Numbered from the stretch's first letter, positions 1,226 through 52,030 are shown. The stretch: 64,000 nucleotides of DNA from Escherichia coli (GCF_003019035.1 NZ_CP027447.1); one strand, 5' to 3'. Numbers and translations are program-made. The notes: generated from the letters alone by a model not told the origin.

Positions 1226-3295
1226 TTACTGTAACAGCGAAATATCCGCAACTCGCAGGAATAATTCGCGCAGTTTCTCCAGCATGGTAAGACGGTTGAT
1301 TCGCAATTCTTTGTCATCAACCATGACCATCACTTTATCGAAGAAGGCATCAACCGGTTCACGCAGCTCAGCCAGTTCGACCAGCGCATCCTGGTAACGA
1401 CCTTCAGCAAAGTACGGCTCTAGCTTGTCACGTAGCACCACAACCTGCATCGCCAGTTTAATTTCTTCCGGCTCTTTCAGAGTAGAGGCATTCACGCGGT
1501 CGCTCAGCACTTCGTCAGATTTCGCCAGAATGTTAGATACACGCTTGTTCGCCGCCGCCAGTGCTGCAGCTGCATCCAGGGTACGGAAGTGCGATACCGC
1601 TTTCATTCGGGCATCGAAATCAGCCGGACGAGTCGGACGACGCGCCAGTACCGCCTGGATGGTGTCAACGGTGTAACCTTCGTCCTGATACCAGGCGCGG
1701 AAGCGACCGAGCATAAAGTCGATAACATCATCAACCACGTTGGCATTAGTCAGCTTATCGCCATACAGACGCACTGCTTCTTCGGTCAGGGTTTGCAGGT
1801 CAAGATTGAGGTTCTTCTCAACGATAATACGCAGCACGCCAAGTGCGGCACGACGCAGCGCAAACGGGTCTTTGTCGCCTTTCGGATGCTGGCCGATACC
1901 GAAGATACCCGCCAGGGTATCCATCTTGTCAGCAATCGCCAGCGCACAGGCTACCGGGTTAGACGGCAGGTCATCACCGGCAAAGCGCGGCTGATACTGC
2001 TCGTTCAGCGCCACGGCAACATCTTCCGCTTCGCCATCGTGACGCGCGTAGTGCATCCCCATAACGCCCTGGGTGTCGGTGAACTCGAAGACCATGTTGG
2101 TCATCAGGTCGCACTTGGACAGCAGGCCCGCACGGGTAGCGTGGTTAACGTCAGCGCCAATCTGTTCAGCAATCCAGCCAGCCAGCGCCTGGATGCGGTC
2201 AGTCTTGTCACGCAGCGTACCCAGCTGTTGCTGGAACAGCACGGTTTGCAGGCGCGGCAGGTTATCTTCCAGACGTTTTTTACGGTCGGTGTTGAAGAAG
2301 AACTCGGCATCCGCCAAACGTGGACGAACGACTTTCTCGTTACCAGAGATAATTTGCTGCGGATCTTTCGATTCGATGTTGGCAACGAAGATAAAGTTCG
2401 GCAGCAGTTTGCCGTCGTTCGCATACACCGGGAAGTACTTCTGGTCACCTTTCATGGTGTAAACCAGTGCTTCAGACGGCACCGCGAGGAATTTCTCTTC
2501 GAATTTCGCGGTCAGAACGACCGGCCACTCCACCAGCGAAGCCACTTCTTCCAGCAGGCTTTCGCTTAAGTCAGCGTTACCGCCAATCTTACGCGCCGCT
2601 TCTTCGGCATCGGCTTTAATCTTCGCCTTACGTTCTTCGTAATCGGCGATGACTTTCCCGCGCTCACGCAGAATTTCCGGATACTGATCAGCATTGTCGA
2701 TAGTGAATTCCGACTCGCCCATAAAGCGGTGGCCGCGAATCACGCGATCGGACTGAATACCCAGAATGGTAGCCGGAATAACTTTGTCGCCCAGCAGCAG
2801 GGTCACGGTGTGAACCGGACGCACGAAGTGCACGTCGCTTGCGCCCCAGCGCATCAGTTTCGGGATCGGCAGTTTCGCCAGCGAAGTCGCAACCATATTC
2901 GGCAGCAGTGCTTCGGTGCTTTCGCCCTTCACGTGGGCGCGATACAGCAGCCATTCGCCTTTATCGGTAGTCAGACGCTCAGCCTGGTCAACGGTAATAC
3001 CGCAACCACGCGCCCAGCCTTCTGCCGCTTTGCTCGGTTTGCCTTCAGCGTCGAACGCCTGGGCAATCGCCGGGCCGCGTTTTTCGATTTCACGATCCGG
3101 TTGCGCTTCCGCCAGGTTACCTACTTTCAGCGCCAGACGACGCGGAGCAGCAAACCATTGAACGGTGCCGTGTGCGAGGCCAGCGTTATCCAGCTCCGCA
3201 GTAAAGTTCGCAGCAAAGGACTCAGCCAGGCTGCGCAGTGCTTTTGGTGGCAGCTCTTCAGTGCCGATTTCCACCAGAAAAGTTTTCTCAGACAT
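1226..3295 (-). CDS. glyS: Glycine--tRNA ligase beta subunit
   Basis: 689-aa [23 protein letters not shown]...; immediately downstream of glyQ on the same strand. Confidence 0.97.
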
Positions 3296-3304
3296 AGCCG
3301 CCTC

Positions 3305-4216
3305 TTACTTATCTTTGTTGCACATCGGGAAGCCGAGGGCTTCACGGGAAGCGTAGTATGCTTCTGCCACTGCTTTGGTCAGGGTGCGAATGCGCAGAAT
3401 ATAGCGCTGACGCTCGGTGACGGAGATGGCTTTACGCGCATCCAGCAGGTTGAAGCTGTGGGCGGCTTTCAGAATACGCTCGTAGGCTGGCAGCGGCAGC
3501 GGATTTTCCAGCGCCAGCAGCTGCTGCGCTTCTTTCTCGTACTGCTCAAAGCAGGTGAACAGGAAGTCCACATCCGCGTATTCGAAGTTGTAAGTGGACT
3601 GCTCCACTTCGTTCTGATGGAACACGTCGCCATAGGTGGTTTTACCCAGCGGGCCGTCGCTCCAGACCAGGTCGTAAACGCTGTCTACGCCCTGAATGTA
3701 CATTGCCAGACGTTCCAGACCGTAGGTGATCTCGCCGGTAACCGGTTTACACTCCAGACCACCAACCTGCTGGAAGTAAGTGAACTGCGTCACTTCCATG
3801 CCGTTCAGCCACACTTCCCAGCCCAGCCCCCAGGCACCCAGCGTCGGGTTTTCCCAGTTATCTTCCACGAAACGGATGTCGTGGATGGTCGGGTCCATGC
3901 CCAGCTCTTTCAGAGAACCAAGGTACAGCTCCTGAATATTGTCCGGCGATGGCTTAATGACCACCTGGAACTGATAGTAGTGCTGTAAACGGTTGGGGTT
4001 TTCGCCGTAGCGACCATCGGTCGGGCGACGAGAAGGCTGAACATAAGCAGCCGCCATCGGTTCTGGCCCCAGCGCGCGCAGACAGGTCATTGGGTGAGAG
4101 GTTCCCGCGCCGACTTCCATGTCCAATGGTTGAACAATGGTGCAGCCCTGGCGAGCCCAGTAATCCTGTAAGGTCAGGATCAAGCCCTGGAAGGTCCTGG
4201 TATCAAACTTTTGCAT
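3305..4216 (-). CDS. glyQ: Glycine--tRNA ligase alpha subunit
   Basis: 303-aa [28 protein letters not shown]...; 9-bp spacing to glyS. Confidence 0.97.
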
Positions 4217-4310
4217 ATTATTTCGTGCTGGATACGTGTGGATTTAAAGGAAGGGATCAGTATACCCGCTGGATGGAAGATATACAGTACGAAACGGGAA
4301 AAAGCAGGGC

Positions 4311-4619
4311 TTAACGCATGGAAAGATGCAAAAAATGGCCATCTGCGTCAAAAGAACAGACAAACTGCTCTTTACGGAAGGTATAACCGCGCATTTCGTA
4401 GCTTCCCTGGAACTGTTCGAAGGCGGTGACGTCGATTTTTTGCTCGCCGGTGTTATAACGTTTTGCCGCCTGATCCTTGCATAACGCTTCCATATTCAAC
4501 GAACGCAGAGGATCAACCTTTACCCGTTGTGCTTTCTGCACGGGTGGCGGTGTAGAACAACCCACTAGCGCCATAAGCACCATAAGCGCCATTGCCGGAA
4601 AGAAAGAGTTCATCATCAT
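4311..4619 (-). CDS. ysaB: Small lipoprotein YsaB (signal peptide with LVGC lipobox)
   Basis: 102-aa ORF MMMNSFFPAMALMVLMALVGCSTPPP...; position downstream of glyQ. Confidence 0.8.
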   Translation of the reverse strand: MMMNSFFPAMALMVLMALVGCSTPPPVQKAQRVKVDPLRSLNMEALCKDQAAKRYNTGEQKIDVTAFEQFQGSYEMRGYTFRKEQFVCSFDADGHFLHLSMR

Positions 4620-4793
4620 TAAATTACCGTCTGGTTTGCAGGTGAGTCTTATTATTTATATCGGTATAGTGGCTGATATCTTACGAATTTCCTTAAGCCT
4701 CTATAAGCTGTAGTGATAAAACTCAGATTATTCCAGTGCGCCAACCGAATGATTTATCGGTCAGACTTTTTTTAACCAGATACAGAGACACAG

Positions 4794-5789
4794 ATGCAGC
4801 CCAAAATTTACTGGATTGATAACCTGCGAGGGATAGCGTGTTTAATGGTGGTGATGATTCACACCACTACCTGGTATGTGACCAATGCTCATAGTGTTAG
4901 CCCCGTCACATGGGATATCGCCAATGTTCTGAATTCTGCCTCTCGTGTCAGCGTGCCGCTATTTTTCATGATTTCCGGCTATCTCTTTTTTGGCGAACGC
5001 AGCGCCCAGCCGCGCCATTTCTTGCGTATCGGCTTATGTCTGCTTTTTTATAGCGCAATCGCACTGCTCTACATTGCGCTGTTTACCTCCATCAATGTAG
5101 AGATAGCGCTTAAAAACCTGCTGCAAAAGCCTGTTTTTTACCACTTATGGTTTTTCTTCGCGATTGCGGTGATTTATCTGGTTTCACCGCTGATTCAGGT
5201 GAAGAACGTCGGCGGTAAAATGTTGCTGGTGCTAATGGTGGTGATTGGCATCATCGCTAATCCAAATACTGTGCCGCAGAAAATCGACGGTTTTGAATGG
5301 CTGCCAATTAACTTATATATCAATGGCGATACTTTTTACTACATCCTGTATGGCATGTTGGGGCGCGCCATTGGCATGATGGACACACAGCATAAGGCAC
5401 TGTCGTGGGTGAGCGCCACACTGTTTGTTGCGGGGGTATTTATTATCTCTCGCGGGACATTATATGAATTGCAGTGGCGCGGAAATTTTGCCGATACCTG
5501 GTATCTTTACTGTGGGCCGATGGTTTTTATCTGCGCAATCACGCTATTGACTCTGGTTAAAAACACGCTGGATACACACACTGTTCCCGGGCTTGGGCTG
5601 ATATCACGCCATTCTTTAGGTATATACGGTTTCCATGCATTGATTATCCATGCGCTGCGTACCCGGGGGATTGAGCTTAAAAACTGGCCAATACTCGATA
5701 TTATTTGGATCTTTTGCGCGACGTTGGCAGCGAGTTTGTTACTTTCTATGCTGGTACAACGAATCGACAGAAACAGACTAGTGAGTTAA
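4794..5789 (+). CDS. wecH: Acyltransferase-3 family integral membrane O-acetyltransferase (WecH/YiaH)
   Basis: 331-aa multi-pass membrane [23 protein letters not shown]... Confidence 0.85.
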
Positions 5790-5830
5790 ATAAAAGCCCG
5801 GTCACATTGGACTGACCGGGCTTATGTGAA

Positions 5831-6271
5831 TTACTCGCTGTATTCTTCCTGGGTAACCTGTGTTTCTTTTGGTGGGTTTATTCCGGCATCACGAATATTC
5901 TTCTGCACCGCTACTGCACCAAACAAGCTTAAGAAGAAAGCCAGTCCATAAAAACCTTTCTCGCTGAGTAATAACGTCGCATTCCACAGACCTACCATCA
6001 GTAACGCAACAGAGATAATAAAGACAGTCAGGCAGGTCATATAATAAATGGAGGTGGTCGGTATGCCTTCATACTTGTCCCGAACGGTCTTTTGATAAGA
6101 CGCCGCAGAAAACAGTCCTAATACCAGTACGGCAAAATAATATCCTTTTTCATTTAACTGCATCTCTGCATTCCATAGCCCTAACAGATAGGTAACGATA
6201 CCACCAACGAGAGCTATCCATGACACAATACTAAAGGCCGGTGAATAGGTTGATATTTTGTTGTCCATCAC
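5831..6271 (-). CDS. yiaA: Inner membrane protein YiaA (YiaA/YiaB family)
   Basis: 146-aa hydrophobic ORF, paralogous to the adjacent yiaB. Confidence 0.8.
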
Positions 6272-6313
6272 AGTATTCCTTTCATTCCTGAATGTGTAAG
6301 AGGTTTATGTTGC

Positions 6314-6655
6314 TCATGCCGAGCGAAACAAACGCATTTGACCAAACAAGCAGACAAAAAAGGCGATGGGATAAATCACCATTTCATAAGCATTGATAGG
6401 TGCGTTTAAAACACCGATAAACAAGAGACCGATAGTGATTAACGCCAGCAACTGGCAGACGCGGATAAAAAAATCATCCAGTTGCCCGAGTTTTTCTGCG
6501 CGAAGATATGCATAATTGCCAAAAGTTGCTGTCATTAACACGCCAAGAAAATAGCCTTTGCCACTTAACAATGGGCATGATATCCATAGCCCAACCAGAT
6601 AAACCAGCACCCCGACAACAAATAATAGTTTTGCCACAGTCTTTGAGGTTTTCAT
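6314..6655 (-). CDS. yiaB: Inner membrane protein YiaB (YiaA/YiaB family); start placed at internal ATG (MKTSKTVAKLL...)
   Basis: ORF-track frame 6314-6697; known protein begins at the ATG at 6653-6655. Confidence 0.8.
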   Translation of the reverse strand: MKTSKTVAKLLFVVGVLVYLVGLWISCPLLSGKGYFLGVLMTATFGNYAYLRAEKLGQLDDFFIRVCQLLALITIGLLFIGVLNAPINAYEMVIYPIAFFVCLFGQMRLFRSA

Positions 6656-6823
6656 AACGATCTCCATATCTACCAGCGATACATTACGAGTAACCAACGA
6701 AAGACAAAACTGAAAAATGCCATTAACAAATGATTTTCAGAATAAATTCATACTAAATATTAATTAATTACTGAGATATATAGATGTGAATTATCCCCCA
6801 CCCGGTCAGGCAGGGGATAACGT

Positions 6824-8278
6824 TTACGCCATTAATGGCAGAAGTTGCTGATAGAGGCGACGGAACGTTTCTCGTCGTGGCTGATAAGCGGCATAACGCT
6901 GCGCATCTGGTAGATGCGACTGTTCTAACGGTAGTTGTGGCAACAACTCAATGAGCGATTTCTCTGGATTCGCCGCAATCTGCGCCAGCCTTGCTGCGCC
7001 CAGTGCTGGCCCCACATCTCCCCCTGTGCGGTAATCGAGCTGCTGACCGCTGATGTCCGCCAGCATTTGACGCCAGTACTCACTACGCGCCCCGCCACCA
7101 ATCAACGTAACACTTTGCGGTTTAATGCCGCAGGCATGCACGACATCCATGCCATCTGCCAGTGCGTAACCCACGCCTTCCAGCACTGCTCGCGCCAGTT
7201 CATTGGGGCCATGTTGATGAGTCAAACCAAAGAAAACCCCTTTCGCCTGGGGATTATTGTGTGGTGTACGCTCGCCGGAAAGATAAGGCAGAAACCAAAC
7301 TGGCTCGGCACTTTCATCAGCCTGTTGAGCAGCCGCGATTAAAGCTGGAACATTGCTCAGACCGGTTAATTTTGCGGCCCAATCCAGGCAAGAAGCCGCA
7401 CTCAGCATCACAGACATTAAATGCCAACGCTGCGGGAGCGCATGGCAAAAGCTGTGTACGGCGCTTTCTGGCTTGCTTAAGAATCCTTCGCTGACAGCAA
7501 AATAGACCCCCGACGTCCCCAGCGATAACATTGCCTGATTAGCATCAACCATTCCCACACCAATCGCACCAGCTGCATTATCGCCACCGCCTGCGACAAC
7601 AGGCACCGCCGCCATACCCCACGCTTTCGCAACTTCAGGTAGCAAAGCACCAGTAATTTCGCTGCCTTCGTATAATGCGGGCATCTGGTCACGAGATAAG
7701 TGGCAAGCCTGCAGCATGAGATCGCTCCAGTCACGCTTTGCGACATCCAGCCACATAGTGCCAGCTGCGTCAGACATATCGCTGGCAAACTCCCCCGTCA
7801 TACGCAGACGCAAGTAATCTTTCGGTAATAATACTTTATCGATTTGACGGAATATCTCCGGCTCATGCCGCTGAACCCATAGCAATTTAGGCGCAGTAAA
7901 TCCGGGCATCATCAGGTTACCGGTAATCACCCGTGATTGCGGAACTCGCGCTTCCAGCAAAGTGCACTCTTGCGCACAGCGCCCGTCGTTCCACAAAATG
8001 GCAGGGCGTAATACCCGTTGCTGAGCATCCAGTAAGGTTGCACCGTGCATCTGTCCGGCAATACCTAATGCTTTAACGTCTTGCAGAGAATGCTGAACGC
8101 CCAGAGCTTTCATTGCGCGATCAGTTGCCTGCCACCACTGTTCCGGGTCTTGTTCCGACCAGAGTGGATGCGGGCGCGAAACGGTCAGCTTTTCCGTTTG
8201 CGCAGCAACCACCTCACCCTGCTCGTTGAGCAAAATAACTTTTACGCCCGAGGTGCCAAGATCTATCCCGATATACAT
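6824..8278 (-). CDS. xylB: Xylulokinase
   Basis: 484-aa ORF MYIGIDLGTSGVKVILLNEQGEVV...; FGGY kinase; downstream of xylA. Confidence 0.95.
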   Translation of the reverse strand: MYIGIDLGTSGVKVILLNEQGEVVAAQTEKLTVSRPHPLWSEQDPEQWWQATDRAMKALGVQHSLQDVKALGIAGQMHGATLLDAQQRVLRPAILWNDGRCAQECTLLEARVPQSRVITGNLMMPGFTAPKLLWVQRHEPEIFRQIDKVLLPKDYLRLRMTGEFASDMSDAAGTMWLDVAKRDWSDLMLQACHLSRDQMPALYEGSEITGALLPEVAKAWGMAAVPVVAGGGDNAAGAIGVGMVDANQAMLSLGTSGVYFAVSEGFLSKPESAVHSFCHALPQRWHLMSVMLSAASCLDWAAKLTGLSNVPALIAAAQQADESAEPVWFLPYLSGERTPHNNPQAKGVFFGLTHQHGPNELARAVLEGVGYALADGMDVVHACGIKPQSVTLIGGGARSEYWRQMLADISGQQLDYRTGGDVGPALGAARLAQIAANPEKSLIELLPQLPLEQSHLPDAQRYAAYQPRRETFRRLYQQLLPLMA

Positions 8279-8349: not shown

Positions 8350-9672
8350 TTATTTGTCGAACAGATAATGATTTACCAGATTTTCCAGTTGCTCCTGGCG
8401 ACCACTCTGATGCACCGGAGACAAATTATGTTCCTGAGCATATTTGGCTAAATCTGCCAGTGACATTTGGCCTTTCAGGATTTGCTGGCCTAATTCGCTA
8501 TTCCAGCCGGAATAACGCTGCGCGATGCGTTTATCCAGCTCGCCATCTTCAATCATGCGCGCTGCAATTTTCAGCGCCAACGCCATCGTATCCATCGCGC
8601 CAATATGACCGTAAAACAGATCATATTTATCAGTACTTTGACGACGTACTTTGGCATCGAAGTTCAGACCACCGGTGGTGAAACCGCCTGCTTTGAGAAT
8701 TTCATACATCACCAGCGCATTCTCTTCCACACTGTTCGGGAACTGGTCGGTGTCCCAGCCCAGTTGCGCATCGCCACGGTTGGCGTCGACAGAACCGAAC
8801 AGGCCAAGCGCAATGGCGGTGGCTATTTCATGATGGAAAGAGTGACCTGCCAGCGTCGCGTGGTTAGCTTCAATATTCAGTTTAATCTCTTTTTCCAGAC
8901 CAAACTGTTTCAGGAAGCCATAGACCGTCGCAGCATCGTAATCATATTGATGTTTGGTCGGTTCTTGCGGTTTCGGTTCGATAAGCAACGTGCCCTGGAA
9001 ACCGATTTTATGTTTATGCTCAACCACCATCTGCATAAAGCGGCCCAGCTGTTCACGCTCCTGGCGCAAGTCGGTATTTAACAGCGTTTCGTAACCTTCA
9101 CGACCACCCCACAGGACATAGTTTTCACCGCCCAATTTATGGGTTGCTTCCATCGCTGTAACAACTTGCGTTGCCGCCCAACTGAAGACTTCAGGATCTG
9201 GGTTCGTCGCCGCACCCGCGCCATAGCGAGGGTTTGTAAAGCAGTTAGCAGTTCCCCACAGCAGCTTCACGCCGCTCTCTTCTTGCTTGCCTGCCAGGAC
9301 ATCAACCATTTGCGCAAAATTATTGATGTACTCTTTTAACGACGCGCCCTCAGGGGAAACATCTACATCGTGGAAGCAATAAAATGGCACATGTAACTTG
9401 TGGAAAAACTCAAATGCGACATCTGCTTTACGCTTCGCCAACGCCAGTGCCTCACCAGGCTGCTGCCACGGACGATTAAACGCCCCCACACCAAACATAT
9501 CCGCCCCGTTCCAGCAGAAGGTGTGCCAGTAGCAGGCGGCAAAACGCAAATGCTCTTCCATACGCTTGCCCAACACCAGTTCGTCGGGATTGTAGTGACG
9601 GAATGCTAACGGGTTTGAGGATTTTGAGCCTTCATAACGAACGCGATCGAGCTGGTCAAAATAGGCTTGCAT
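8350..9672 (-). CDS. xylA: Xylose isomerase; start at internal ATG ([15 protein letters not shown]...)
   Basis: ORF 8350-9684; canonical XylA N-terminus begins at the ATG at 9670-9672. Confidence 0.97.
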
Positions 9673-10037
9673 ATTGAACTCCATAATCAGGTAATGCCGC
9701 GGGTGATGGATGATGTCGTAATATTGGGCACTCCCTTTCAGTTGCTCAATTATGTTATTTCACACTGCTATTGAGATAATTCACAAGTGTGCGCTCGCTC
9801 GCAAAATAAAATGGAATGATGAAACTGGGTAATTCCTCGAAGAGAAAAATGCAATAAGTACAATTTCGCAACAAAAGTAAGATCTCTGTCATAAATCAAG
9901 AAATAAACCAAATATCGTAATCGAAAGATAAAAATCTGTAATTGTTTTCCCCTGTTTAGTTGCTAAAAATTGGTTACGTTTATCGCGGTGATTGTTACTT
10001 ATTAAAGCTGTCCTCTAACTACAGAAGGCCCTACACA
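9673..10037. promoter_or_regulatory. Divergent xylAB / xylFGH promoter region (expected XylR and CRP binding sites)
   Basis: 365-bp AT-rich intergenic region between divergently transcribed xylA and xylF; individual sites not resolved here. Confidence 0.55.
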
Positions 10038-23510: not shown

Positions 23511-24788
23511 ATGGCTGTGCTGATTTTTCTGGGCTGTCTGTTGGGTGGTATTGCTATCGGTTTGCCTATTGCCTGGGCACTGTTGTTGTGCGGGGCGGCG
23601 TTAATGTTCTGGCTGGACATGTTTGATGTCCAGATCATGGCACAAACGCTGGTGAACGGAGCCGACAGCTTCTCCCTGCTGGCGATTCCGTTCTTTGTGC
23701 TGGCGGGTGAAATCATGAATGCGGGCGGCTTGTCAAAACGCATTGTTGACCTGCCGATGAAACTGGTGGGGCATAAACCAGGCGGGCTGGGCTACGTCGG
23801 CGTGCTGGCGGCTATGATTATGGCAAGCCTTTCTGGTTCTGCCGTTGCGGATACCGCCGCCGTTGCCGCTCTACTGGTGCCGATGATGCGCAGCGCCAAC
23901 TACCCGGTCAACCGGGCGGCGGGGCTGATTGCCTCTGGCGGCATTATCGCGCCAATTATTCCCCCTTCCATTCCGTTTATTATTTTCGGCGTTTCCAGCG
24001 GATTATCCATCAGTAAGCTGTTTATGGCGGGCATTGCCCCTGGCATGATGATGGGCGCAACGCTGATGCTTACCTGGTGGTGGCAGGCCAGTCGCCTTAA
24101 TTTACCCCGCCAGCAAAAAGCAACGATGCAGGAAATCTGGCACTCTTTTGTCTCCGGTATCTGGGCGCTGTTTCTTCCAGTCATCATTATTGGCGGGTTT
24201 CGCTCCGGTCTGTTTACCCCTACCGAAGCCGGGGCCGTTGCTGCTTTCTATGCGCTGTTTGTCGCCACAGTTATTTACCGTGAAATGACCTTCGCCACAC
24301 TTTGGCATGTACTCATTGGCGCGGCGAAAACCACCTCAGTGGTAATGTTTCTGGTGGCCTCGGCACAAGTTTCTGCCTGGCTGATTACCATTGCTGAATT
24401 GCCGATGATGGTTTCTGATTTACTGCAACCGTTGGTCGATTCACCGCGTCTGCTGTTTATCGTTATTATGGTGGCTATCCTGATTGTCGGCATGGTCATG
24501 GATTTAACGCCGACGGTGTTAATTCTTACTCCGGTATTAATGCCTTTAGTTAAAGAGGCAGGAATCGATCCGATTTATTTCGGTGTCATGTTTATCATTA
24601 ACTGCTCAATCGGCTTAATTACACCGCCTATCGGTAATGTGCTTAACGTTATTTCAGGGGTGGCAAAACTCAAATTCGATGATGCAGTCAGAGGCGTTTT
24701 CCCTTACGTCCTGGTTTTATATTCATTATTAGTCGTATTTGTTTTTATTCCCGATCTCATCATCCTCCCTTTGAAATGGATTAATTAA
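23511..24788 (+). CDS. yiaN: TRAP transporter large permease subunit
   Basis: 425-aa polytopic ORF. Confidence 0.9.
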   Translation: MAVLIFLGCLLGGIAIGLPIAWALLLCGAALMFWLDMFDVQIMAQTLVNGADSFSLLAIPFFVLAGEIMNAGGLSKRIVDLPMKLVGHKPGGLGYVGVLAAMIMASLSGSAVADTAAVAALLVPMMRSANYPVNRAAGLIASGGIIAPIIPPSIPFIIFGVSSGLSISKLFMAGIAPGMMMGATLMLTWWWQASRLNLPRQQKATMQEIWHSFVSGIWALFLPVIIIGGFRSGLFTPTEAGAVAAFYALFVATVIYREMTFATLWHVLIGAAKTTSVVMFLVASAQVSAWLITIAELPMMVSDLLQPLVDSPRLLFIVIMVAILIVGMVMDLTPTVLILTPVLMPLVKEAGIDPIYFGVMFIINCSIGLITPPIGNVLNVISGVAKLKFDDAVRGVFPYVLVLYSLLVVFVFIPDLIILPLKWIN

Positions 24789-24800
24789 AAGGAAAATATT

Positions 24801-25787
24801 ATGAAATTACGCTCTGTAATCTACGCATTATTCATTGCTGGCCTGGCTGCATTTAGTACATCTTCAATGGCGGCGCAATCTTTACGTTTCGGTTATGAAA
24901 CCTCACAAACCGACTCGCAACATATTGCGGCGAAAAAATTCAATGATTTATTGCAGGAGAGAACCAAAGGCGAGCTGAAATTAAAACTGTTCCCGGACAG
25001 CACTCTCGGTAACGCGCAGGCGATGATCAGCGGCGTACGTGGCGGCACCATCGATATGGAAATGTCCGGCTCGAATAACTTTGCCGGGTTATCACCAGTG
25101 ATGAACTTGCTTGATGTCCCTTTCCTGTTCCGCGATACCGCTCACGCGCATAAAACGCTCGACGGCAAAGTCGGTGATGATCTGAAAGCCTCACTTGAAG
25201 GTAAAGGACTGAAAGTACTGGCCTACTGGGAAAACGGCTGGCGCGATGTCACCAACTCGCGCGCACCGGTTAAAACCCCCGCCGACCTGAAAGGGCTGAA
25301 AATCCGCACCAACAATAGTCCGATGAATATCGCAGCATTCAAAGTCTTTGGCGCTAACCCGATCCCGATGCCGTTTGCCGAAGTCTATACCGGGCTGGAA
25401 ACGCGCACTATCGACGCTCAGGAACACCCGATCAACGTCGTCTGGTCAGCAAAATTTTATGAAGTACAGAAGTACCTTTCTCTGACGCACCACGCCTATT
25501 CGCCACTTCTGGTGGTGATCAACAAAGCGAAGTTTGACGGCTTAACCCCGGAGTTCCAGCAAGCGCTAATTTCATCTGCGCAGGAAGCGGGTAACTACCA
25601 GCGCAAACTGGTTGCTGAAGATCAGCAAAAAATCATCGATGGCATGAAAGAAGCGGGCGTGGAAGTCATCACCGATCTCGACCGCAAAGCCTTTAGCGAC
25701 GCGCTGGGTAATCAGGTTCGCAACATGTTTGTTAAAGATGTTCCGCAGGGTGCTGATCTGCTGAAGGCCGTGGATGAGGTGCAATAA
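24801..25787 (+). CDS. yiaO: TRAP transporter periplasmic solute-binding protein
   Basis: 328-aa ORF with signal peptide. Confidence 0.9.
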   Translation: MKLRSVIYALFIAGLAAFSTSSMAAQSLRFGYETSQTDSQHIAAKKFNDLLQERTKGELKLKLFPDSTLGNAQAMISGVRGGTIDMEMSGSNNFAGLSPVMNLLDVPFLFRDTAHAHKTLDGKVGDDLKASLEGKGLKVLAYWENGWRDVTNSRAPVKTPADLKGLKIRTNNSPMNIAAFKVFGANPIPMPFAEVYTGLETRTIDAQEHPINVVWSAKFYEVQKYLSLTHHAYSPLLVVINKAKFDGLTPEFQQALISSAQEAGNYQRKLVAEDQQKIIDGMKEAGVEVITDLDRKAFSDALGNQVRNMFVKDVPQGADLLKAVDEVQ

Positions 25788-43530: not shown

Positions 43531-46500
43531 ATGAGCGGAAAACCGGCGGCGCGTCAGGGCGACATGACGCAGTATGGCGGTAGCATTGTTCAGGGTTCTG
43601 CCGGGGTGCGTATTGGTGCCCCCACCGGTGTGGCCTGTTCGGTGTGCCCCGGCGGGGTGACGTCCGGCCATCCGGTCAATCCGCTGCTGGGTGCAAAGGT
43701 CCTTCCCGGCGAAACCGACCTTGCCCTGCCCGCCCCGCTGCCGTTCATTCTCTCCCGCACCTACAGCAGTTACCGGACAAAAACGCCCGCGCCGGTGGGG
43801 AGCCTCGGCCCCGGCTGGAAAATGCCTGCGGATATCCGCTTACAGCTGCGCGATAACACTCTGATACTCAGTGATAACGGCGGCAGAAGCCTGTATTTTG
43901 AGCACCTGTTTCCCGGTGAGGACGGTTACAGCCGCAGCGAGTCACTCTGGCTGGTGCGCGGCGGCGTGGCGAAACTGGATGAAGGTCACCGGCTGGCCGC
44001 ACTCTGGCAGGCGCTGCCGGAAGAGCTTCGCCTGAGTCCGCATCGTTATCTGGCGACGAACAGTCCACAGGGGCCGTGGTGGGTACTCGGCTGGTGTGAG
44101 CGGGTGCCGGAGGCGGAGAAGGCCACTTCCGGCGGGACGGAACCGTCCGCTTTTCCTGATACCCTGCCGGGTTACACCGAATATGGCCGGGACAACGGCA
44201 TCCGTCTGTCTGCCGTGTGGCTGACGCACGACCCGGAATACCCGGAGAATTTACCTGCCGCGCCGCTGGTGCGCTATGGCTGGACGCCACGCGGCGAACT
44301 GGCGGTGGTGTATGACCGCAGCAATACACAGGTGCGCAGCTTTACTTACGATGATAAATACCGGGGCCGGATGGTGGCGCACCGCCGCGCGGGCCGGCCG
44401 GAAATCCGTTACCGTTACGACAGCGACGGGCGGGTGACAGAACAGCTAAACCCGGCAGGCTTAAGCTACACGTATCAGTATGAGAAAGACCGCATCACCA
44501 TCACCGACAGCCTGGACCGCCGTGAAGTGCTGCACACGCAGGGCGAAGGCGGGCTGAAGCGGGTGGTGAAAAAGGAACACGCGGACGGCAGCGTCACGCA
44601 GAGTCAGTTTGACGCGGTGGGCAGGCTTAAGGCACAGACGGATGCCGCAGGCCGGACGACTGAGTACAGCCCGGATGTGGTGACGGGACTCATCACGCGC
44701 ATCACCACGCCGGATGGCAGGGCATCGGCGTTTTACTATAACCACCACAACCAGTTAACGTCAGCCACCTGGCCTGACGGGCTGGAAATACGCCGGGAAT
44801 ATGATGAATCCGGCCGTCTGATTCAGGAAACCGCACACAACGGCGATATCACCCGCTACCGTTATGATAATCCACACAGTGACTTCCCCTGCGCAACGGA
44901 CGATGCCACCGGCAGCCGGAAAACCATGACGTGGAGCCGTTACGGTCAGTTGCTGACCGTCACTGACTGTTCCGGTTATGTAACCCGTTATGACCATGAC
45001 CGCTTCGGGCAGATGACGGCGGTGCACCGCGAGGAAGGCCTGAGCCAGTACCGCGCATACGACAGCCGTGGACAGTTAATTGCGGTGAAAGACACGCAGG
45101 GCCATGAAACGCGGTATGAATACAACGCCGCCGGTGACCTGACCGCCGTCATTGCCCCGGACGGCAGCAGAAACGGGACACAGTACGATGCGTGGGGAAA
45201 GGCCGTCCGTACCACGCAGGGCGGGCTGACCCGCAGTATGGAATACGATGCTGCAGGACGGGTCATCCGCCTGACAAACGAAAATGGCAGCCACACCACC
45301 TTCCGTTACGATGTACTCGACCGGCTGATACAGGAAACCGGCTTTGACGGCCGCGCACAGCGTTATCACCACGACCTGACCGGCAAACTTATCCGCAGCG
45401 AGGATGAGGGGCTGGTCACCCACTGGCACTATGACGAAGCAGACCGCCTCACGCAGCGCACCGTGAATGGCGAAACCGCAGAGCGGTGGCAGTATGACGA
45501 ACGCGGCTGGCTGACAGGCATCAGCCATCTCAGCGAAGGGCACCGGGTGACGGTGCATTACAGGTATGATGAGAAAGGCCGCCTGACCGGTGAGCGCCAG
45601 ACGGTGCATCACCCGCAGACGGAAGCACTGCTCTGGCAGCATGAAACCAGACATGCGTACAACGCGCAGGGGCTGGCGAACCGCTGTATACCGGACAGCC
45701 TGCCCGCCGTGGAATGGCTGACTTATGGCAGTGGTTACCTGGCAGGGATGAAGCTGGGTGACTCGCCCCTGGTGGAGTACACCCGCGACCGCCTGCACCG
45801 GGAAACGCTGCGCAGCTTCGGCCGTTATGAACTCACCACCGCTTATACCCCTGCCGGGCAGTTACAGAGCCAGCACCTGAACAGCCTGCAGTATGACCGC
45901 GATTACACCTGGAACGACAACGGCGAACTCATTCGCATCAGCAGCCCGCGCCAGACCCGGAGTTACAGCTACAGCGACTCCGGCAGGCTGACCGGCGTTC
46001 ACACCACCGCAGCGAACCTGGATATCCGCATCCCGTATGCCACGGACCCGGCAGGTAACCGCCTGCCCGACCCGGAGCTGCACCCGGACAGCACCCTCAG
46101 CATGTGGCCGGATAACCGTATCGCCCGTGACGCGCACTATCTTTACCGGTATGACCGTCACGGCAGGCTGACGGAGAAAACCGACCTCATCCCGGAAGGG
46201 GTTATCCGCACGGATGATGAGCGGACTCACCGGTACCATTACGACAGCCGGCACCGGCTGGTGCACTACACGCGGACACAATATGCAGAGCCGCTGGTCG
46301 AAAGTCGCTATCTTTACGACCCGCTGGGCCGCAGGGTGGCAAAACGGGTATGGCGACGTGAACGGGACCTGACGGGCTGGATGTCGCTGTCACGGAAACC
46401 GGAAGTGACCTGGTACGGCTGGGACGGCGACCGGCTGACCACGATACAGAACGACAGAACCCGCATCCAGACGATTTATCAGCCGGGGAGCTTCACGCCA

Positions 46501-47571
46501 CTCATCAGGGTCGAAACCGCCACCGGTGAGCTGGCGAAAACGCAGCGCCGCAGCCTGGCGGATGCGCTTCAGCAGTCCGGCGGCGAAGACGGTGGTGATG
46601 TGGTGTTCCCGCCGGTGCTGGTGCAGATGCTCGACCGGCTGGAAAGTGAAATCCTGGCTGACCGGGTGAGTGAGGAAAGCCGCCGCTGGCTGGCATCGTG
46701 CGACCTGACGGTGGCGCAGATGCAAAACCAGATGGAACCGGTGTACACGCCGGCGCGAAAAATTCACCTGTACCACTGCGACCATCGCGGCCTGCCGCTG
46801 GCGCTTGTCAGCACGGAAGGGGCAACAGCGTGGTACGCAGAATACGATGAATGGGGCAACCTGCTGAATGAAGAGAACCCGCACCAGCTGCAGCAGCTCA
46901 TCCGCCTGCCGGGTCAGCAGTATGATGAGGAGTCCGGCCTGTATTACAACCGCCACCGCTATTATGACCCGCTGCAGGGGCGGTATATCACTCAGGATCC
47001 GATTGGGCTGAAGGGGGGATGGAACCTGTATGGATATCAATTGAATCCGATATCAGACATCGACCCCCTGGGTTTATCTATGTGGGAGGATGCAAAATCG
47101 GGGGCATGTACTAATGGTCTTTGCGGCACACTATCCGCTATGATAGGTCCAGATAAGTTTGATTCTATAGATAGCACCGCATATGACGCCTTAAATAAAA
47201 TAAATAGCCAATCTATTTGCGAAGATAAAGAGTTCGCTGGTTTAATATGTAAGGATAATAGTGGCAGATATTTCTCAACAGCACCTAACCGAGGGGAAAG
47301 AAAAGGATCATATCCATTCAATAGCCCTTGCCCTAATGGTACTGAGAAAGTATCAGCTTATCATACTCATGGTGCAGATAGTCATGGAGAATATTGGGAC
47401 GAAATATTTTCAGGCAAAGATGAGAAAATAGTTAAAAGTAAAGATAACAATATCAAGTCATTTTATTTGGGCACGCCCAGTGGTAATTTTAAAGCAATAG
47501 ATAACCACGGGAAGGAAATAACAAACGGAAAAGGATTACCTAATGTCTGCAGAGTTCATGGTAATATGTAA
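43531..47571 (+). CDS. rhsA: Rhs-family polymorphic toxin (RhsA-type core with YD repeats, PxxxxDPxGL boundary at residues 1173-1182, and a 164-aa variable C-terminal tip)
   Basis: 1346-aa ORF; conserved N-terminus [17 protein letters not shown]...; YD-repeat core; DPLGL at nt 47062-47076 followed by an abrupt drop in GC content. Confidence 0.93.
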
Positions 47572-47926
47572 AAAAATATTGTTTAGGAACTGTGTCATTG
47601 TATCTTTGTTTGTTTTTACATACAACACATGGGCGCAGTGTAATAATAATATTAAAATAATGCGCAAGTATGAAAGTGAGGGTAAATATACCGTTAGAAA
47701 TTTGGTTAAAAATAAAGCTATAGCATTGGAATTAGCTGAGATATATGTTAAGAATCGTTATGGGCAGGATGCCGCAGAAGAAGAAAAACCATATAAAATC
47801 ACTGAGTTAACAACAAGTTGGGTTGTTGAAGGCACCATTCACTCAGACCAAATTGCTGGTGGGGTTTTTATTATAGAAATAGGCAAAAATGATGGGGGAA
47901 TTCTGAATTTTGGCCACGGAAAATAA
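47543..47926 (+). CDS. Putative immunity protein for the RhsA C-terminal tip (small AT-rich ORF with N-terminal hydrophobic segment)
   Basis: 127-aa ORF overlapping the rhsA 3' end by 29 nt; role inferred from position. Confidence 0.5.
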
Positions 47927-48030
47927 GTATGTAAGGATAATCAAACATCGTGTGCGCTGATGGCAGAGTAGGTGGAGGACTCCAGACAGTCAAACGATAA
48001 AAAAAGATAGCCTTTATGGAGGTTCCTGCA

Positions 48031-48873
48031 ATGTCAAATACATACCAGAAAAGAAAGGCAAGTAAAGAGTATGGTTTATATAATCAATGTAAGAAACTAA
48101 ATGATGATGAATTATTTCGCTTACTTGATGATCACAATTCCTTGAAAAGGATTTCATCTGCCAGAGTATTACAGTTAAGAGGTGGGCAAGACGCTGTTAG
48201 ATTGGTAATTGAGTTCTGCTCTGATAAAAATTATATCCGTAGAGATATCGGAGCATTTATACTCGGGCAAATAAAAATTTTCAAAAAATGCGAAGATAAT
48301 GTGTTTAATATTTTGAACAATATGGCATTGAATGATAAGAGCGCTTGCGTTCGAGCTACGGCAATCGAGTCAACGGCTCAGCGATGCAAGAAAAACCCAA
48401 TTTATTCACCTAAAATAGTAGAACAATCTCAAATTACTGCTTTTGATAAATCGACTAATGTCAGACGTGCTACAGCATTTGCTATTTCTGTTATCAATGA
48501 TAAAGCAACAATTCCACTATTGATTAATCTGTTAAAAGATCCAAATGGAGATGTCAGAAACTGGGCCGCATTTGCAATAAATATCAATAAATATGATAAT
48601 AGTGATATTAGGGATTGTTTTGTGGAGATGCTTCAGGATAAAAATGAGGAAGTCCGTATTGAAGCAATAATCGGACTTTCCTACAGAAAAGATAAAAGGG
48701 TTTTATCTGTTTTATGCGATGAGTTAAAAAAAAATACTGTTTATGATGATATCATTGAAGCTGCGGGTGAATTAGGTGATAAAACGCTACTTCCTGTTTT
48801 AGATACTATGTTGTACAAGTTTGATGACAATGAAATTATAACTTCCGCTATTGATAAGCTGAAGCGTTCATAG
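48031..48873 (+). CDS. yibA: HEAT-repeat protein YibA; start at internal ATG (MSNTYQKRK...)
   Basis: ORF 48016-48873; known 280-aa protein begins at 48031. Confidence 0.85.
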   Translation: MSNTYQKRKASKEYGLYNQCKKLNDDELFRLLDDHNSLKRISSARVLQLRGGQDAVRLVIEFCSDKNYIRRDIGAFILGQIKIFKKCEDNVFNILNNMALNDKSACVRATAIESTAQRCKKNPIYSPKIVEQSQITAFDKSTNVRRATAFAISVINDKATIPLLINLLKDPNGDVRNWAAFAININKYDNSDIRDCFVEMLQDKNEEVRIEAIIGLSYRKDKRVLSVLCDELKKNTVYDDIIEAAGELGDKTLLPVLDTMLYKFDDNEIITSAIDKLKRS

Positions 48874-48883
48874 CGTGAGTTGC

Positions 48884-49040
48884 CTATGCACAGTGGGGTA
48901 TTCCCGCCGGCACGGTGCAGATGCTCGATCGGCTGGAAAGTGAAATCCTGGCTGACCGGGTGAGTGAGGAAAGCCGCCGCTGGCTGGCATCGTGCGGCCT
49001 GACGGTGGCGCAGATGAAAAAACAGATGGAACCGGTGTAC
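48884..49040 (+). pseudogene. 5' portion of an orphan Rhs core fragment, separated from its continuation by an IS insertion
   Basis: About 150 bp nearly identical to rhsA 46600-46750, ending at the IS left junction. Confidence 0.6.
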
Positions 49041-50332
49041 CAGGGAAAGATCACGTAACGCTGCTTTTTTGTACTAAACAATTCGCATTTTATGTTTAAA
49101 AATTGAGATATTCCTCATTACCTGAAGCTGTTTTTTATTGCTTATACATGATCAAATACTCCTTACATAATTAAGGAGAACAAAATGGTACTTAAAAAAT
49201 TGATGGAACATATTTCTATTATCCCCGATTACAGACAAGCCTGGAAAGTGGAACATAAATTATCGGATATTCTACTGTTGACTATTTGCGCCGTTATTTC
49301 GGGTGCAGAAGGTTGGGAAGATATAGAGGATTTTGGGGAAACACATCTCGATTTTTTGAAGCAATATGGTGATTTTGAAAATGGTATTCCTGTTCACGAT
49401 ACCATTGCCAGAGTTGTATCCTGTATCAGTCCTGCAAAATTTCACGAGTGCTTTATTAACTGGATGCGTGACTGCCATTCTTCAGATGATAAAGGCGTCA
49501 TTGCAATTGATGGAAAAACGCTCCGGCACTCTTATGACAAGAGTCGCCGCAGGGGAGCGATTCATGTCATTAGTGCGTTCTCAACAATGCACAGTCTGGT
49601 CATCGGACAGATCAAGACGGATGAGAAATCCAATGAGATTACAGCTATCCCGGAACTTCTTAACATGCTGGATATTAAAGGAAAAATCATCACAACTGAT
49701 GCGATGGGTTGCCAGAAAGATATTGCAGAGAAGATACAAAAACAGGGAGGTGATTATTTATTCGCTGTAAAAGGAAACCAGGGGCGGCTAAATAAAGCCT
49801 TCGAGGAAAAATTTCCGCTGAAAGAATTAAATAATCCAGAGCATGACAGTTACGCAATTAGTGAAAAGAGTCACGGCAGAGAAGAAATCCGTCTTCACAT
49901 TGTCTGCGATGTCCCTGATGAACTTATTGATTTCACGTTTGAATGGAAAGGTCTGAAGAAATTATGCGTGGCAGTCTCCTTTCGGTCAATAATAGCAGAA
50001 CAAAAGAAAGAGCCCGAAATGACGGTCAGATATTATATCAGTTCTGCTGATTTAACCGCAGAGAAGTTCGCCACAGCAATCCGAAACCACTGGCACGTGG
50101 AGAATAAGCTGCACTGGCGTCTGGACGTGGTAATGAATGAAGACGACTGCAAAATAAGAAGAGGAAATGCAGCAGAATTATTTTCAGGGATACGGCACAT
50201 CGCTATTAATATTTTGACGAATGATAAGGTATTCAAGGCAGGGTTAAGACGTAAGATGCGAAAAGCAGCCATGGACAGAAAGTATCTGGCGTCAGTCCTT
50301 GCGGGGAGCGGGCTTTCGTAATCTTTCCCTGC
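49041..50332 (+). mobile_element. ISAs1-family insertion sequence (Rhs-associated H-repeat), apparently intact, with 15-bp terminal inverted repeats and a 9-bp direct target duplication CCGGTGTAC
   Basis: Terminal repeats CAGGGAAAGATCACG (49041-49055) and CGTAATCTTTCCCTG (50317-50331); flanking CCGGTGTAC at 49032-49040 and 50333-50341. Confidence 0.8.
49185..50321 (+). CDS. ISAs1-family (H-repeat-associated) transposase
   Basis: 378-aa [29 protein letters not shown]... recognised as an H-rpt / ISAs1 transposase. Confidence 0.9.
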
Positions 50333-50335
50333 CCG

Positions 50336-51109
50336 GTGTACACGCCGGCGCGAAAAATCCACCTGTACCACTGCGACCATCGCGGCCTGCCGCTGGTGCT
50401 TATCAGCACGGAAGGGGCAACAGCGTGGTACGCAGAATATGATGAATGGGGCAACCTGCTGAATGAAGAGAACCCGCACCAGCTGCAGCAGCTCATCCGC
50501 CTGCCGGGTCAGCAGTATGATGAGGAGTCCGGCCTGTATTACAACCGCCACCGCTATTATGACCCGCTGCAGGGGCGGTATATCACTCAGGATCCAATTG
50601 GGCTGAAGGGGGGATGGAATTTTTATCAGTATCCGTTGAATCCGATAACTGATATTGACCCGTTGGGATTAGCGACCTGTTTATACAGCATAACTTTAGG
50701 TATGCTTTCATGCGTTTCAGATACGCCAAGTGATGATAATTCTTATGGTGTGCTTACTATTTCAGTCGCCTCTGATAATAATGGTAATAATATGCAATGT
50801 AAAAATAATCCTGGTTGTACACACTTACAAAATAGAGGCCCAATACCTCAAGGGGTATGGAGCTGGAATGTTAATGGTCCTGGAGCAACCAATAGAAAAC
50901 CTAATGGTATACGTTTAGTACCGTCAGCAAATACAGAAACGTATAATCGTGATGGATTTTTAACACATAGTTGTTTAAACGCTTTTGGTCCATCTTTAGG
51001 ACCTCGATTCTGTTCCGAGGGTTGTATAACTGGTTCATCTAATGACATGCAAAAATTAAATGAGCTAATATTTTCAGAGCCAGATAGCACATTAACAGTG
51101 ACGGACTAG
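50336..51109 (+). CDS. Orphan Rhs C-terminal fragment (yibJ-like): last ~110 aa of the Rhs core through DPLGL plus a 145-aa alternative toxin tip with an L,D-transpeptidase-like Cys motif; GTG start in the ORF track
   Basis: N-terminal 110 aa nearly identical to RhsA residues ~1070-1180; tip contains H...SEGCITG. Confidence 0.8.
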
Positions 51110-51113
51110 AAAT

Positions 51114-51635
51114 ATGGCAAGGTTATTAACAATTGTGCTTTTTTTCTCTATTTCTGCGAATGCAGTTACTGTAAACCAATTTCAGAGAGAGTTGGATTTG
51201 GCAGACAAGGCAATATTATGGGCACTAATATCAGCCAGTACCCAAGAGGGACGAAAAGCGTGTTCACTTAGCTATTTTTCATGTAAAGCCGCAGAGGCTG
51301 AACTCGGACTGGCATATATGGCTGCTAATGATAACAAGGCATTTCTCACATCCTTATCTAGAATAATGATGTACAAAATAGATGCTGGACTTTCCGAATC
51401 CTATACATGCTATTTATTAAGCAAGGGAAAGATCATAAGACCATATCTGAAGAATCTAAATCCACACCAACTTGTCGCTGATTGCATTGAAACTGTAAAT
51501 AAAATAAAAGATAAAAATAAAAAAATCATTGATATAGATTCAGTTAATATTTGCAATGATAATAAAAATATAAATTGGAGAGTTAATAGTACTATTGTAG
51601 CCATTGATGATTCTATAAAATGCATCGATGAATAA
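51114..51635 (+). CDS. Putative immunity protein for the orphan Rhs tip, with cleavable signal peptide (predicted periplasmic)
   Basis: 173-aa AT-rich ORF 4 bp downstream of the orphan tip; N-terminus MARLLTIVLFFSISANA-VT. Confidence 0.5.
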   Translation: MARLLTIVLFFSISANAVTVNQFQRELDLADKAILWALISASTQEGRKACSLSYFSCKAAEAELGLAYMAANDNKAFLTSLSRIMMYKIDAGLSESYTCYLLSKGKIIRPYLKNLNPHQLVADCIETVNKIKDKNKKIIDIDSVNICNDNKNINWRVNSTIVAIDDSIKCIDE

Positions 51636-51797
51636 TAACTTAATTATATTTAAAAATATATTAATAACTCACTCTCCAGGAGTTTTTTTAACTTAGTGTT
51701 ATAATGAATACGATAATTAAAAGTGAAGAGAAAAATAGTTGTATACATATATTCCATGAACCTACATTGTGATCTATAAATTATATATTTTTAAATG

Positions 51798-52030
51798 TGA
51801 CTGTCATCCTTCAGATAATAAAGCCATCATCGCAATAGATGGAAAAGCACTCCTGCTCTTTTTTGATTAGAGCCGTGGCAGAGGAACAACTCATATCATC
51901 ATTGCGATCTCGACAATGTATAGTCTGATCCTTCGGCAGATCAAGACGGATAAAAATCCAATGAGTTCACACTCATCCCGAACTTCTTAACATAATGGAT
52001 ATTAACGAAAAATCATCACAGCCGATGAAA
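51798..52030 (+). pseudogene. Degenerate internal remnant of an ISAs1/H-repeat transposase gene
   Basis: About 230 bp with ~75-80% identity to 49480-49700 of the intact transposase gene, with frame disruptions. Confidence 0.65.

Follow-up and report, generated by a model that had tools for sequence, protein, structure and literature searches.

The rhsA locus of Escherichia coli lies at 43.3–52.0 kb of a stretch of 64,000 nucleotides (nt) from NZ_CP027447.1 (assembly GCF_003019035.1), hereafter called the window, which designates the whole stretch analysed, with positions counted from its first letter. Its left neighbours are selA and yibF, its right neighbours yibH, yibI and mtlA, and the closest complete genome is that of strain SCU-301, with 99.6% identity across 9 kb. 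The locus comprises a full-length Rhs toxin gene, made of a G+C-rich core and an A+T-rich C-terminal tip (tip 1), a candidate immunity gene and yibA, followed by an orphan module in which a fragment of core is joined to another tip (tip 2) and another candidate immunity gene. The core and the tips are separated by abrupt steps in G+C content (GC), and the position, reality and meaning of these steps are analysed here. The features are listed below with GC and, where available, GC at third codon positions (GC3), together with the background provided by 27 open reading frames (ORFs) of at least 300 amino acids (aa) from the same window.

43531..47571, plus strand: rhsA, full-length Rhs toxin gene, 1346 aa (Pfam and NCBIfam)
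43531..47025, plus strand: GC-rich core part of rhsA, aa 1–1165; GC 0.620, GC3 0.731
46996..47010, plus strand: first DPxGL motif (DPIGL), aa 1156–1160, before the step, in GC-rich DNA (motif position)
47019..47029, no strand: point at which GC changes in the main gene (maximum likelihood); nucleotide identity with the orphan core copy stops at ~47025
47062..47076, plus strand: second DPxGL motif (DPLGL), aa 1178–1182, on the AT-rich side; expected autoproteolysis site (role from PMC8636562)
47077..47568, plus strand: tip 1, predicted toxin domain DUF4329/Tox-JAB-2 (Pfam, aa 1215–1331); GC 0.380, GC3 0.280
47543..47926, plus strand: yhhH-like immunity candidate (Imm-NTF2-2, Pfam), with a 29-nt overlap with the end of rhsA; GC 0.339, GC3 0.305
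47979..48009, plus strand: vestige of a K-12-type RhsA tip, its last ~10 codons and stop (K-12 comparison)
48016..48873, plus strand: yibA, HEAT-repeat protein (RefSeq start in SCU-301 equivalent to window 48031); GC 0.339, GC3 0.276
48891..49040, plus strand: orphan core fragment, 5′ piece, 97% identical to rhsA 46620–46746; GC 0.613, GC3 0.740
49041..50331, plus strand: ISAs1-family element (ISEc1, H-repeat) of 1291 bp within the orphan core, transposase ORF at 49185–50321
50332..50620, plus strand: orphan core fragment, 3′ piece, 96% identical to rhsA 46738–47037; GC 0.582, GC3 0.716
50591..50605, plus strand: first DPxGL motif (DPIGL) of the orphan module (motif position)
50657..50671, plus strand: second DPxGL motif (DPLGL) of the orphan module; change point 50618 lies 39 nt upstream
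50672..51109, plus strand: tip 2, Tlde1-like (Tox-LD-peptidase), intact frame; GC 0.377, GC3 0.221
51114..51635, plus strand: Imm57 immunity candidate, 173 aa, hydrophobic N-terminus (Pfam Imm57, E 1.4e-44); GC 0.335, GC3 0.276
51797..52027, no strand: remnant of another ISAs1-type element (repeat, 78–79% identical to the intact copy), closing the AT-rich region on the right and corresponding to yibU of K-12
27 background ORFs: GC 0.525 +/- 0.032, GC3 0.576 +/- 0.062

Sliding GC stays at ~0.62 over the rhsA core and at 0.32–0.38 downstream, so that the core exceeds the host average while the cassettes (tips and their immunity genes) fall far short of it. In an initial annotation of the window, the core had been described as GC-rich from the long antisense ORFs it contains, and both tips, both immunity candidates and yibA as AT-rich; the measurements bear this out, with GC 0.62 and GC3 0.73 in the core, inside which antisense ORFs of 88–240 aa cluster, against GC 0.34–0.38 and GC3 0.22–0.31 in the others. 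The core/tip step is almost wholly an effect of third codon positions: from core to tips GC3 drops from 0.73 to 0.22–0.28, while GC at second positions (GC2) is nearly flat (0.48 in the core, 0.44–0.50 in the tips); GC at first positions (GC1) drops too, from 0.65 to ~0.42. Since GC3 falls while GC2 is steady, the step is a synonymous-site effect that reflects the history of the DNA and not the composition of the protein.

The sharp breaks that the initial annotation placed at the core/tip boundaries are real, and more steps exist than it described. Segmentation of the whole window returns, among its four strongest steps, 43543 (start of the core and gene, where GC rises), 47029 (core/tip join) and ~52050 (right end of the Rhs element, 52050 in the segmentation); further steps occur at 48858, where yibA gives way to the orphan core, and at 49041 and 50331, the ends of the insertion sequence. 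The additional GC bumps at 48.86–49.04 kb and 50.3–50.6 kb arise because the orphan core is split by the ISAs1 element. A separate composition step near 24992 (in ~24500–25000), with a log-likelihood difference (delta-lnL) of 33, lies where an ORF with an AT-rich 3′ end gives way to the following ORF and is unrelated to the Rhs element. The 51486–51796 segment just upstream of the ISAs1-type relic has a GC of only 0.20. For comparison with chance, delta-lnL was computed for the steps and for 166 background windows of 1900 nt. A step is present near both DPLGL motifs, and the main one (delta-lnL 62.7) lies beyond all background windows, whose maximum is 39.2. The GC-rich core flanking the orphan step is only 285 nt long, which is why this step (16.7), although above the background 95th percentile (12.9), does not reach the highest background value (26.2).

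The exact position of the step was then related to the motifs at the core end, defined as DPxG-(17/18)-DPxGL (PMC2935791). Each copy carries a pair of DPxGL motifs, DPIGL and after it DPLGL, separated by 17 residues, and the step falls between them, just past the peptide KGGWN. The maximum-likelihood change point is 47019–47029 in the main gene (support within 2 lnL units, 46984–47140) and 50618 in the orphan (50577–50622), in both cases 33–43 nt (11–14 codons, ~13) upstream of DPLGL. The proposed placing of the switch a few codons from DPLGL is thus right at coarse scale, but the motif itself lies on the AT-rich side. The first DPLGL is at 47062–47076, exactly as annotated initially, and the second, given as about 50660–50672, occupies 50657–50671. 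Alignment of the two core ends agrees with this placement, the sequences being near-identical through ...GGGGGGATGGAA (KGGWN) and divergent from ~47025/50620 on.

A broader set of junctions was gathered by back-translating an anchor peptide and scanning one genome per species, with the loci of K-12 and of strain LR-28 added; the scan yielded only 23 stretches, several of them short contigs of metagenome bins with implausible names, and gave 14–20 distinct junctions, too few to amount to a broad survey. Codons are numbered from the first Y of YYDP, DPxGL being codons 34–38. When the 14 distinct tips with full flanks are pooled, GC3 changes at codon 21 (2-lnL support 21–21), with GC3 0.70 on its left and 0.27 on its right; these tips come from E. 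coli, Escherichia albertii, Citrobacter, Pseudocitrobacter, Buttiauxella and metagenome bins. Pairwise comparison of 20 distinct tips gives a mean nucleotide identity of 0.87 as far as the first motif, 0.73–0.78 over codons 17–29, 0.42 in four variable codons, 0.70 in DPxGL and 0.29 past it. The peptide is therefore conserved at the protein level up to DPxGL, its codons being AT-rich and cassette-specific from codon 21. As the join lies ~13 codons upstream of DPLGL, each cassette brings its own second DPxGL; that the step falls between the two motifs, so that the second, catalytic one is encoded in AT-rich DNA and travels with the cassette, is the sole addition made here to the known picture. 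E. coli-type rhs core/tip junctions, some with tips identical to those of E. coli, occur on short contigs of assemblies or bins that bear the names Terrisporobacter, Alistipes, Flavobacterium, Sporosarcina, Lachnospiraceae and Collinsella, most likely through mis-binning or contamination.

Exchange of tip/immunity cassettes on a conserved core, as put forward in the initial annotation, was examined by comparing tips across strains, and it is borne out by different tips at the same locus and the same tip at different loci. At the same locus of K-12 (yibF...yibH), the sequence matches the window up to 47048 with identities of 97.2% and 96.1%; past this point K-12 rhsA has an unrelated tip (EVFPRPFPLP...), and homology returns at 47979, with 31 nt still to go to the stop codon of K-12 rhsA, and extends at 99% across yibA and into the core of the orphan. 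The differing tip segment is thus 47049–47978. The vestige at 47979–48009, now non-coding between the yhhH-like gene and yibA, marks in this alignment where the tip replacement ends on the right. Conversely, tip 1 and the yhhH-like gene are 97.9% identical to their counterparts at K-12 rhsB, another chromosomal locus, the tip differing from that of K-12 RhsB by a single residue. An assignment of DUF4329 to the tip of K-12 RhsA is rejected on the K-12 sequence, where the DUF4329 tip is that of RhsB. The K-12 rhsB locus is collinear with window 44117–48377 over 4261 nt at 96.9%, reaching the 5′ part of yibA where the K-12 H-repeat starts, which suggests, from sequence comparison, that the K-12 RhsB element derived from an element arranged like that of the window. 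In the extracted K-12 rhsB sequence this stretch is 2974–7234, and its yibA part (~360 nt) is the K-12 pseudogene yrhC.

Other genomes add to this mosaic. Strain TK3888 has a stand-alone DUF4329 fragment whose match begins at window 47019, that is at the change point, and matches from rhsC and unnamed cores end at 47049–47076. A third arrangement occupies the same site in strain LR-28, and the module made of the yibJ tip and yibG is present in K-12 and absent from the window, where the orphan joins the 5′ part of a yibJ-type core to a tip and immunity gene of the yibS/yibW/yibV type. Of 5426 complete E. coli genomes, 3690 carry tip 2 with Imm57, usually as a single copy, in two allelic classes of ~91% (3363 genomes) and >=99% identity (296 genomes). 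Regarding the core, a median of nine places per genome match a query that included ISAs1 and other non-core sequence, and core-only queries find 3–5 matching places per genome.

The orphan module itself has a composite structure. Its core is a fragment in two pieces (48891–49040 and 50332–50620) separated by the 1291-bp ISAs1/ISEc1 element, which has inverted ends CAGGGAAAGAT(C/T)ACG, a 9-bp target duplication CCGGTGTAC at 49032–49040 and 50333–50341, and an intact transposase ORF of 378 aa (DDE transposase with a DDE_Tnp_1_assoc domain in Pfam). The empty site corresponds to K-12 yibJ, and the element is 97.3% identical to the H-repeat of K-12 rhsB. Downstream, a 257-aa ORF (50336–51109) begins with the terminal 112 residues of the core model and continues into the Tlde1-like domain, in which an H-x15-SEGC string can be seen by eye (family motif His...Ser/Thr-x-Gly-Cys); the corresponding protein in H72 is named ‘tlde1 domain-containing protein’ in RefSeq. 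Searches against solved structures gave no sequence match for tip 2 and likewise nothing useful for tip 1. Tip 2 and Imm57 are intact in the window; their K-12 counterparts are the pseudogenes yibS and yibW and a shorter yibV (336 nt), window 50336–51635 corresponding to 8621–9681 of the extracted K-12 sequence that contains them. Orphan and main core share direct repeats of 127 nt (97%) and 300 nt (96%), the latter 3595 nt apart.

Domain searches support the gene assignments. In Pfam, the rhsA protein has DUF6531 (aa 46–123), RHS/YD repeats (RHS_repeat in 11 stretches, E 5.3e-69; TIGR01643 matches too), an RHS core and a C-terminal DUF4329 (Tox-JAB-2), and TIGR03696 (Rhs_assc_core) covers aa 1105–1182. 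The protein matches the NCBIfam RHS_core equivalog NF041261 with 2448 bits for a cutoff of 2000, the match ending at aa 1182, the L of DPLGL. This match is broken into two stretches because of an in-frame deletion of 65 codons (195 nt) near the N-terminus, at window 44117 (after aa ~196), of residues that K-12 RhsA and RhsB both have. The deletion is rare: among the best 12 of the 5426 genomes, a one-piece match across the junction is found only in SCU-301, the others spanning an extra 183–195 nt. The pairings of DUF4329/Tox-JAB-2 with Imm-NTF2-2 and of the Tlde1-like tip with Imm57 are as expected, since Tox-JAB-2/Imm-NTF2-2 and Tox-LD-peptidase/Imm57 pairs are catalogued; proteins with HEAT repeats are also recognised as one class of immunity protein (PMC3482391). 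NCBIfam has a family for neither the yhhH-like nor the Imm57 protein. The yhhH-like ORF has an N-terminal extension of ~59 residues (47543–47660), partly hydrophobic, ahead of its Pfam domain; its actual start is uncertain, since initiation at an internal ATG (M40) would yield a protein that is shorter and cytoplasmic.

Taken together, it is highly probable that this rhsA element is a composite polymorphic-toxin locus in which the GC steps mark joins between DNAs of different histories, the tip/immunity cassettes being exchanged between loci and strains by recombination. The GC-rich core would encode the YD-repeat shell, closing with the conserved block of two DPxGL motifs, and the AT-rich DNA after it the variable toxin tip (DUF4329/Tox-JAB-2), the immunity protein YhhH (Imm-NTF2-2) and YibA. 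The downstream orphan would be a 5′-truncated copy of the last ~435 bp of core, split by ISAs1 and followed by the Tlde1-like tip and Imm57. In a Rhs effector of solved structure, the YD-repeat region forms a closed shell round the toxin, and the protein cuts itself behind the second member of a pair of DPLGL motifs spaced by 17 residues, using the aspartate of that motif (PMC8636562). By analogy, the shell of the window RhsA would enclose its toxin and self-cleavage would follow the second DPxGL, of which the motifs are what is seen here; delivery would be by the type VI secretion system. With a core common to nearly all E. coli, cassettes would be swapped through recombination in the conserved core end. 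The second toxin/immunity module would be silent, behind its patch of core homology. Its tip could become joined to the full-length core if the 300-nt repeats recombined; in Salmonella, fusion of an orphan tip to the main gene was shown experimentally via a shared core of 522 bp at 95% identity (PMC3967940). In K-12, yibA immediately follows the RhsA tip; it may be the retained immunity gene for a K-12-type tip. The Imm57 protein is probably exported, its N-terminus (MARLLTIVLFFSISANA) being signal-peptide-like by eye, which would fit a tip 2 acting on the cell wall.

Other explanations of the step have to be weighed against this. The core could have been kept GC-rich in place, and not be of foreign origin, through GC-biased gene conversion among core copies that ends where homology ends. 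Several core copies per genome provide partners for such conversion, the step sits where the copies cease to be highly identical in nucleotides, and its expression at third codon positions can be claimed by this explanation as well; moreover, the rhs genes of one clade vary in base composition according to the host genome (PMC2935791), which suggests that composition is shaped after arrival. However, gene conversion leaves unexplained why tips and immunity genes lie far below the genome average (GC3 0.22–0.31 versus 0.576), and codons 21–29 are still ~74% identical in nucleotides among many tips yet already AT-rich, so that composition changes before homology is fully lost. On balance, this explanation appears improbable without being negligible. 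A combined picture would set the boundary at the codon for N of KGGWN in all 14 pooled cassettes, with the second DPxGL and its catalytic aspartate carried by the cassettes and the first motif belonging to the core, and would have the sharpness of the boundary maintained by GC-biased gene conversion among core paralogues, stopping where cassette-specific sequence starts; in this full form it is considered improbable.

The step could also merely express amino acid composition, with a repeat-rich shell on one side, small globular toxin domains on the other and no signal of DNA history. The fall in GC1 and the richness of the core in G, R, D and Y repeats point that way, but the near-constancy of GC2 and the drop of GC3 from 0.73 to 0.22–0.28 contradict it, as does the writing of the conserved peptide YxYPLNPxxxxDPxGL in AT-rich codons, and this explanation is very unlikely. 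Even less credible, to the point of being negligible, is an ordinary regional fluctuation of GC along the E. coli chromosome: other steps do exist in the window, such as that near 24992, background windows reach 39.2 and the orphan step falls within the background range, yet the main step surpasses all 166 background windows and the same codon step recurs in 14 independent tips.

The reading of the locus as a composite of exchanged cassettes nevertheless meets several difficulties. The ISAs1 insertion cuts the orphan-core homology to 127–150 nt and ~290–300 nt, below the length effective in Salmonella (PMC3967940), and the 65-codon deletion may impair the RhsA protein. No Pfam match to a PAAR domain at E 0.01 or better was obtained for this protein, which has only a literal PAAR string at aa 5–8, and tip 2 is barely above the Pfam threshold for Tlde1_dom (31.4 bits, cutoff 30.1). 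Toxicity, immunity, cleavage and secretion are all ascribed by inference from sequence likeness, and the origin of the core or of the tips cannot be told from composition alone.

Comparison with known systems places the locus within a familiar family. The K-12 RhsA element (rhsA-yibA-yibJ-yibG-yibS/W-yibV-yibU) occupies the same site and has a 96–97% identical core, yibA, a yibJ-type orphan core fragment and a Tlde1-like tip with Imm57 (yibS/W/V), but it differs by its unrelated main tip, the absence of yhhH at the locus, the extra module of yibJ tip and yibG, the broken Tlde1-like tip and the shorter Imm57, while the ISAs1 insertion and the 65-codon core deletion are on the side of the window. 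The K-12 RhsB element (rhsB-yhhH-yrhC-yhhI) shares the core, the tip (DUF4329), yhhH and ~360 nt from the start of yibA, with ISEc1/H-repeat downstream, but it lies at another site (next to nikR), its yibA is truncated by the H-repeat and it lacks a Tlde1/Imm57 orphan. The model of C-terminal displacement and orphan rhs-CT (PMC2935791, PMC3967940) likewise features a GC-rich core, a GC-poor downstream region in which core fragments are joined to alternative tips, and core homology as a recombination substrate; the difference here is an orphan core interrupted by an insertion sequence. According to Jackson et al. (PMC2935791), in E. coli, loci belonging to clade I usually have no dissociated tips, whereas the window locus has one and K-12 two. 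Photorhabdus laumondii Rhs1, a type VI effector of solved shell structure (PMC8636562), also closes its shell with a pair of DPxGL motifs spaced by 17 residues, after which comes its toxin domain; it differs in that no Pfam PAAR domain was detected in the window RhsA, the cleavage of which is predicted from motifs.

A G+C-rich core and an A+T-rich core-extension were described for the Rhs elements of E. coli by Hill and colleagues, as restated by Jackson et al. (PMC2935791), who plot the same contrast for Serratia (67.7% versus 46.4%), with GC peaks marking dissociated tips. The GC step is hence a long-known signature of E. coli Rhs genes, correctly rediscovered here in agreement with Hill and colleagues, Jackson 2009 and Koskiniemi 2014. 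For Rhs biology this brings nothing new, but it shows that composition alone can flag the Rhs core, the tips and the orphan module in raw sequence, and is thus a sound cue for annotation. Two details may be useful to specialists, namely the position of the step, 13 codons upstream of the cleavage motif, and the survival in this strain of the Tlde1-like orphan toxin and Imm57 in intact form, a module of which K-12 has a degenerate version.

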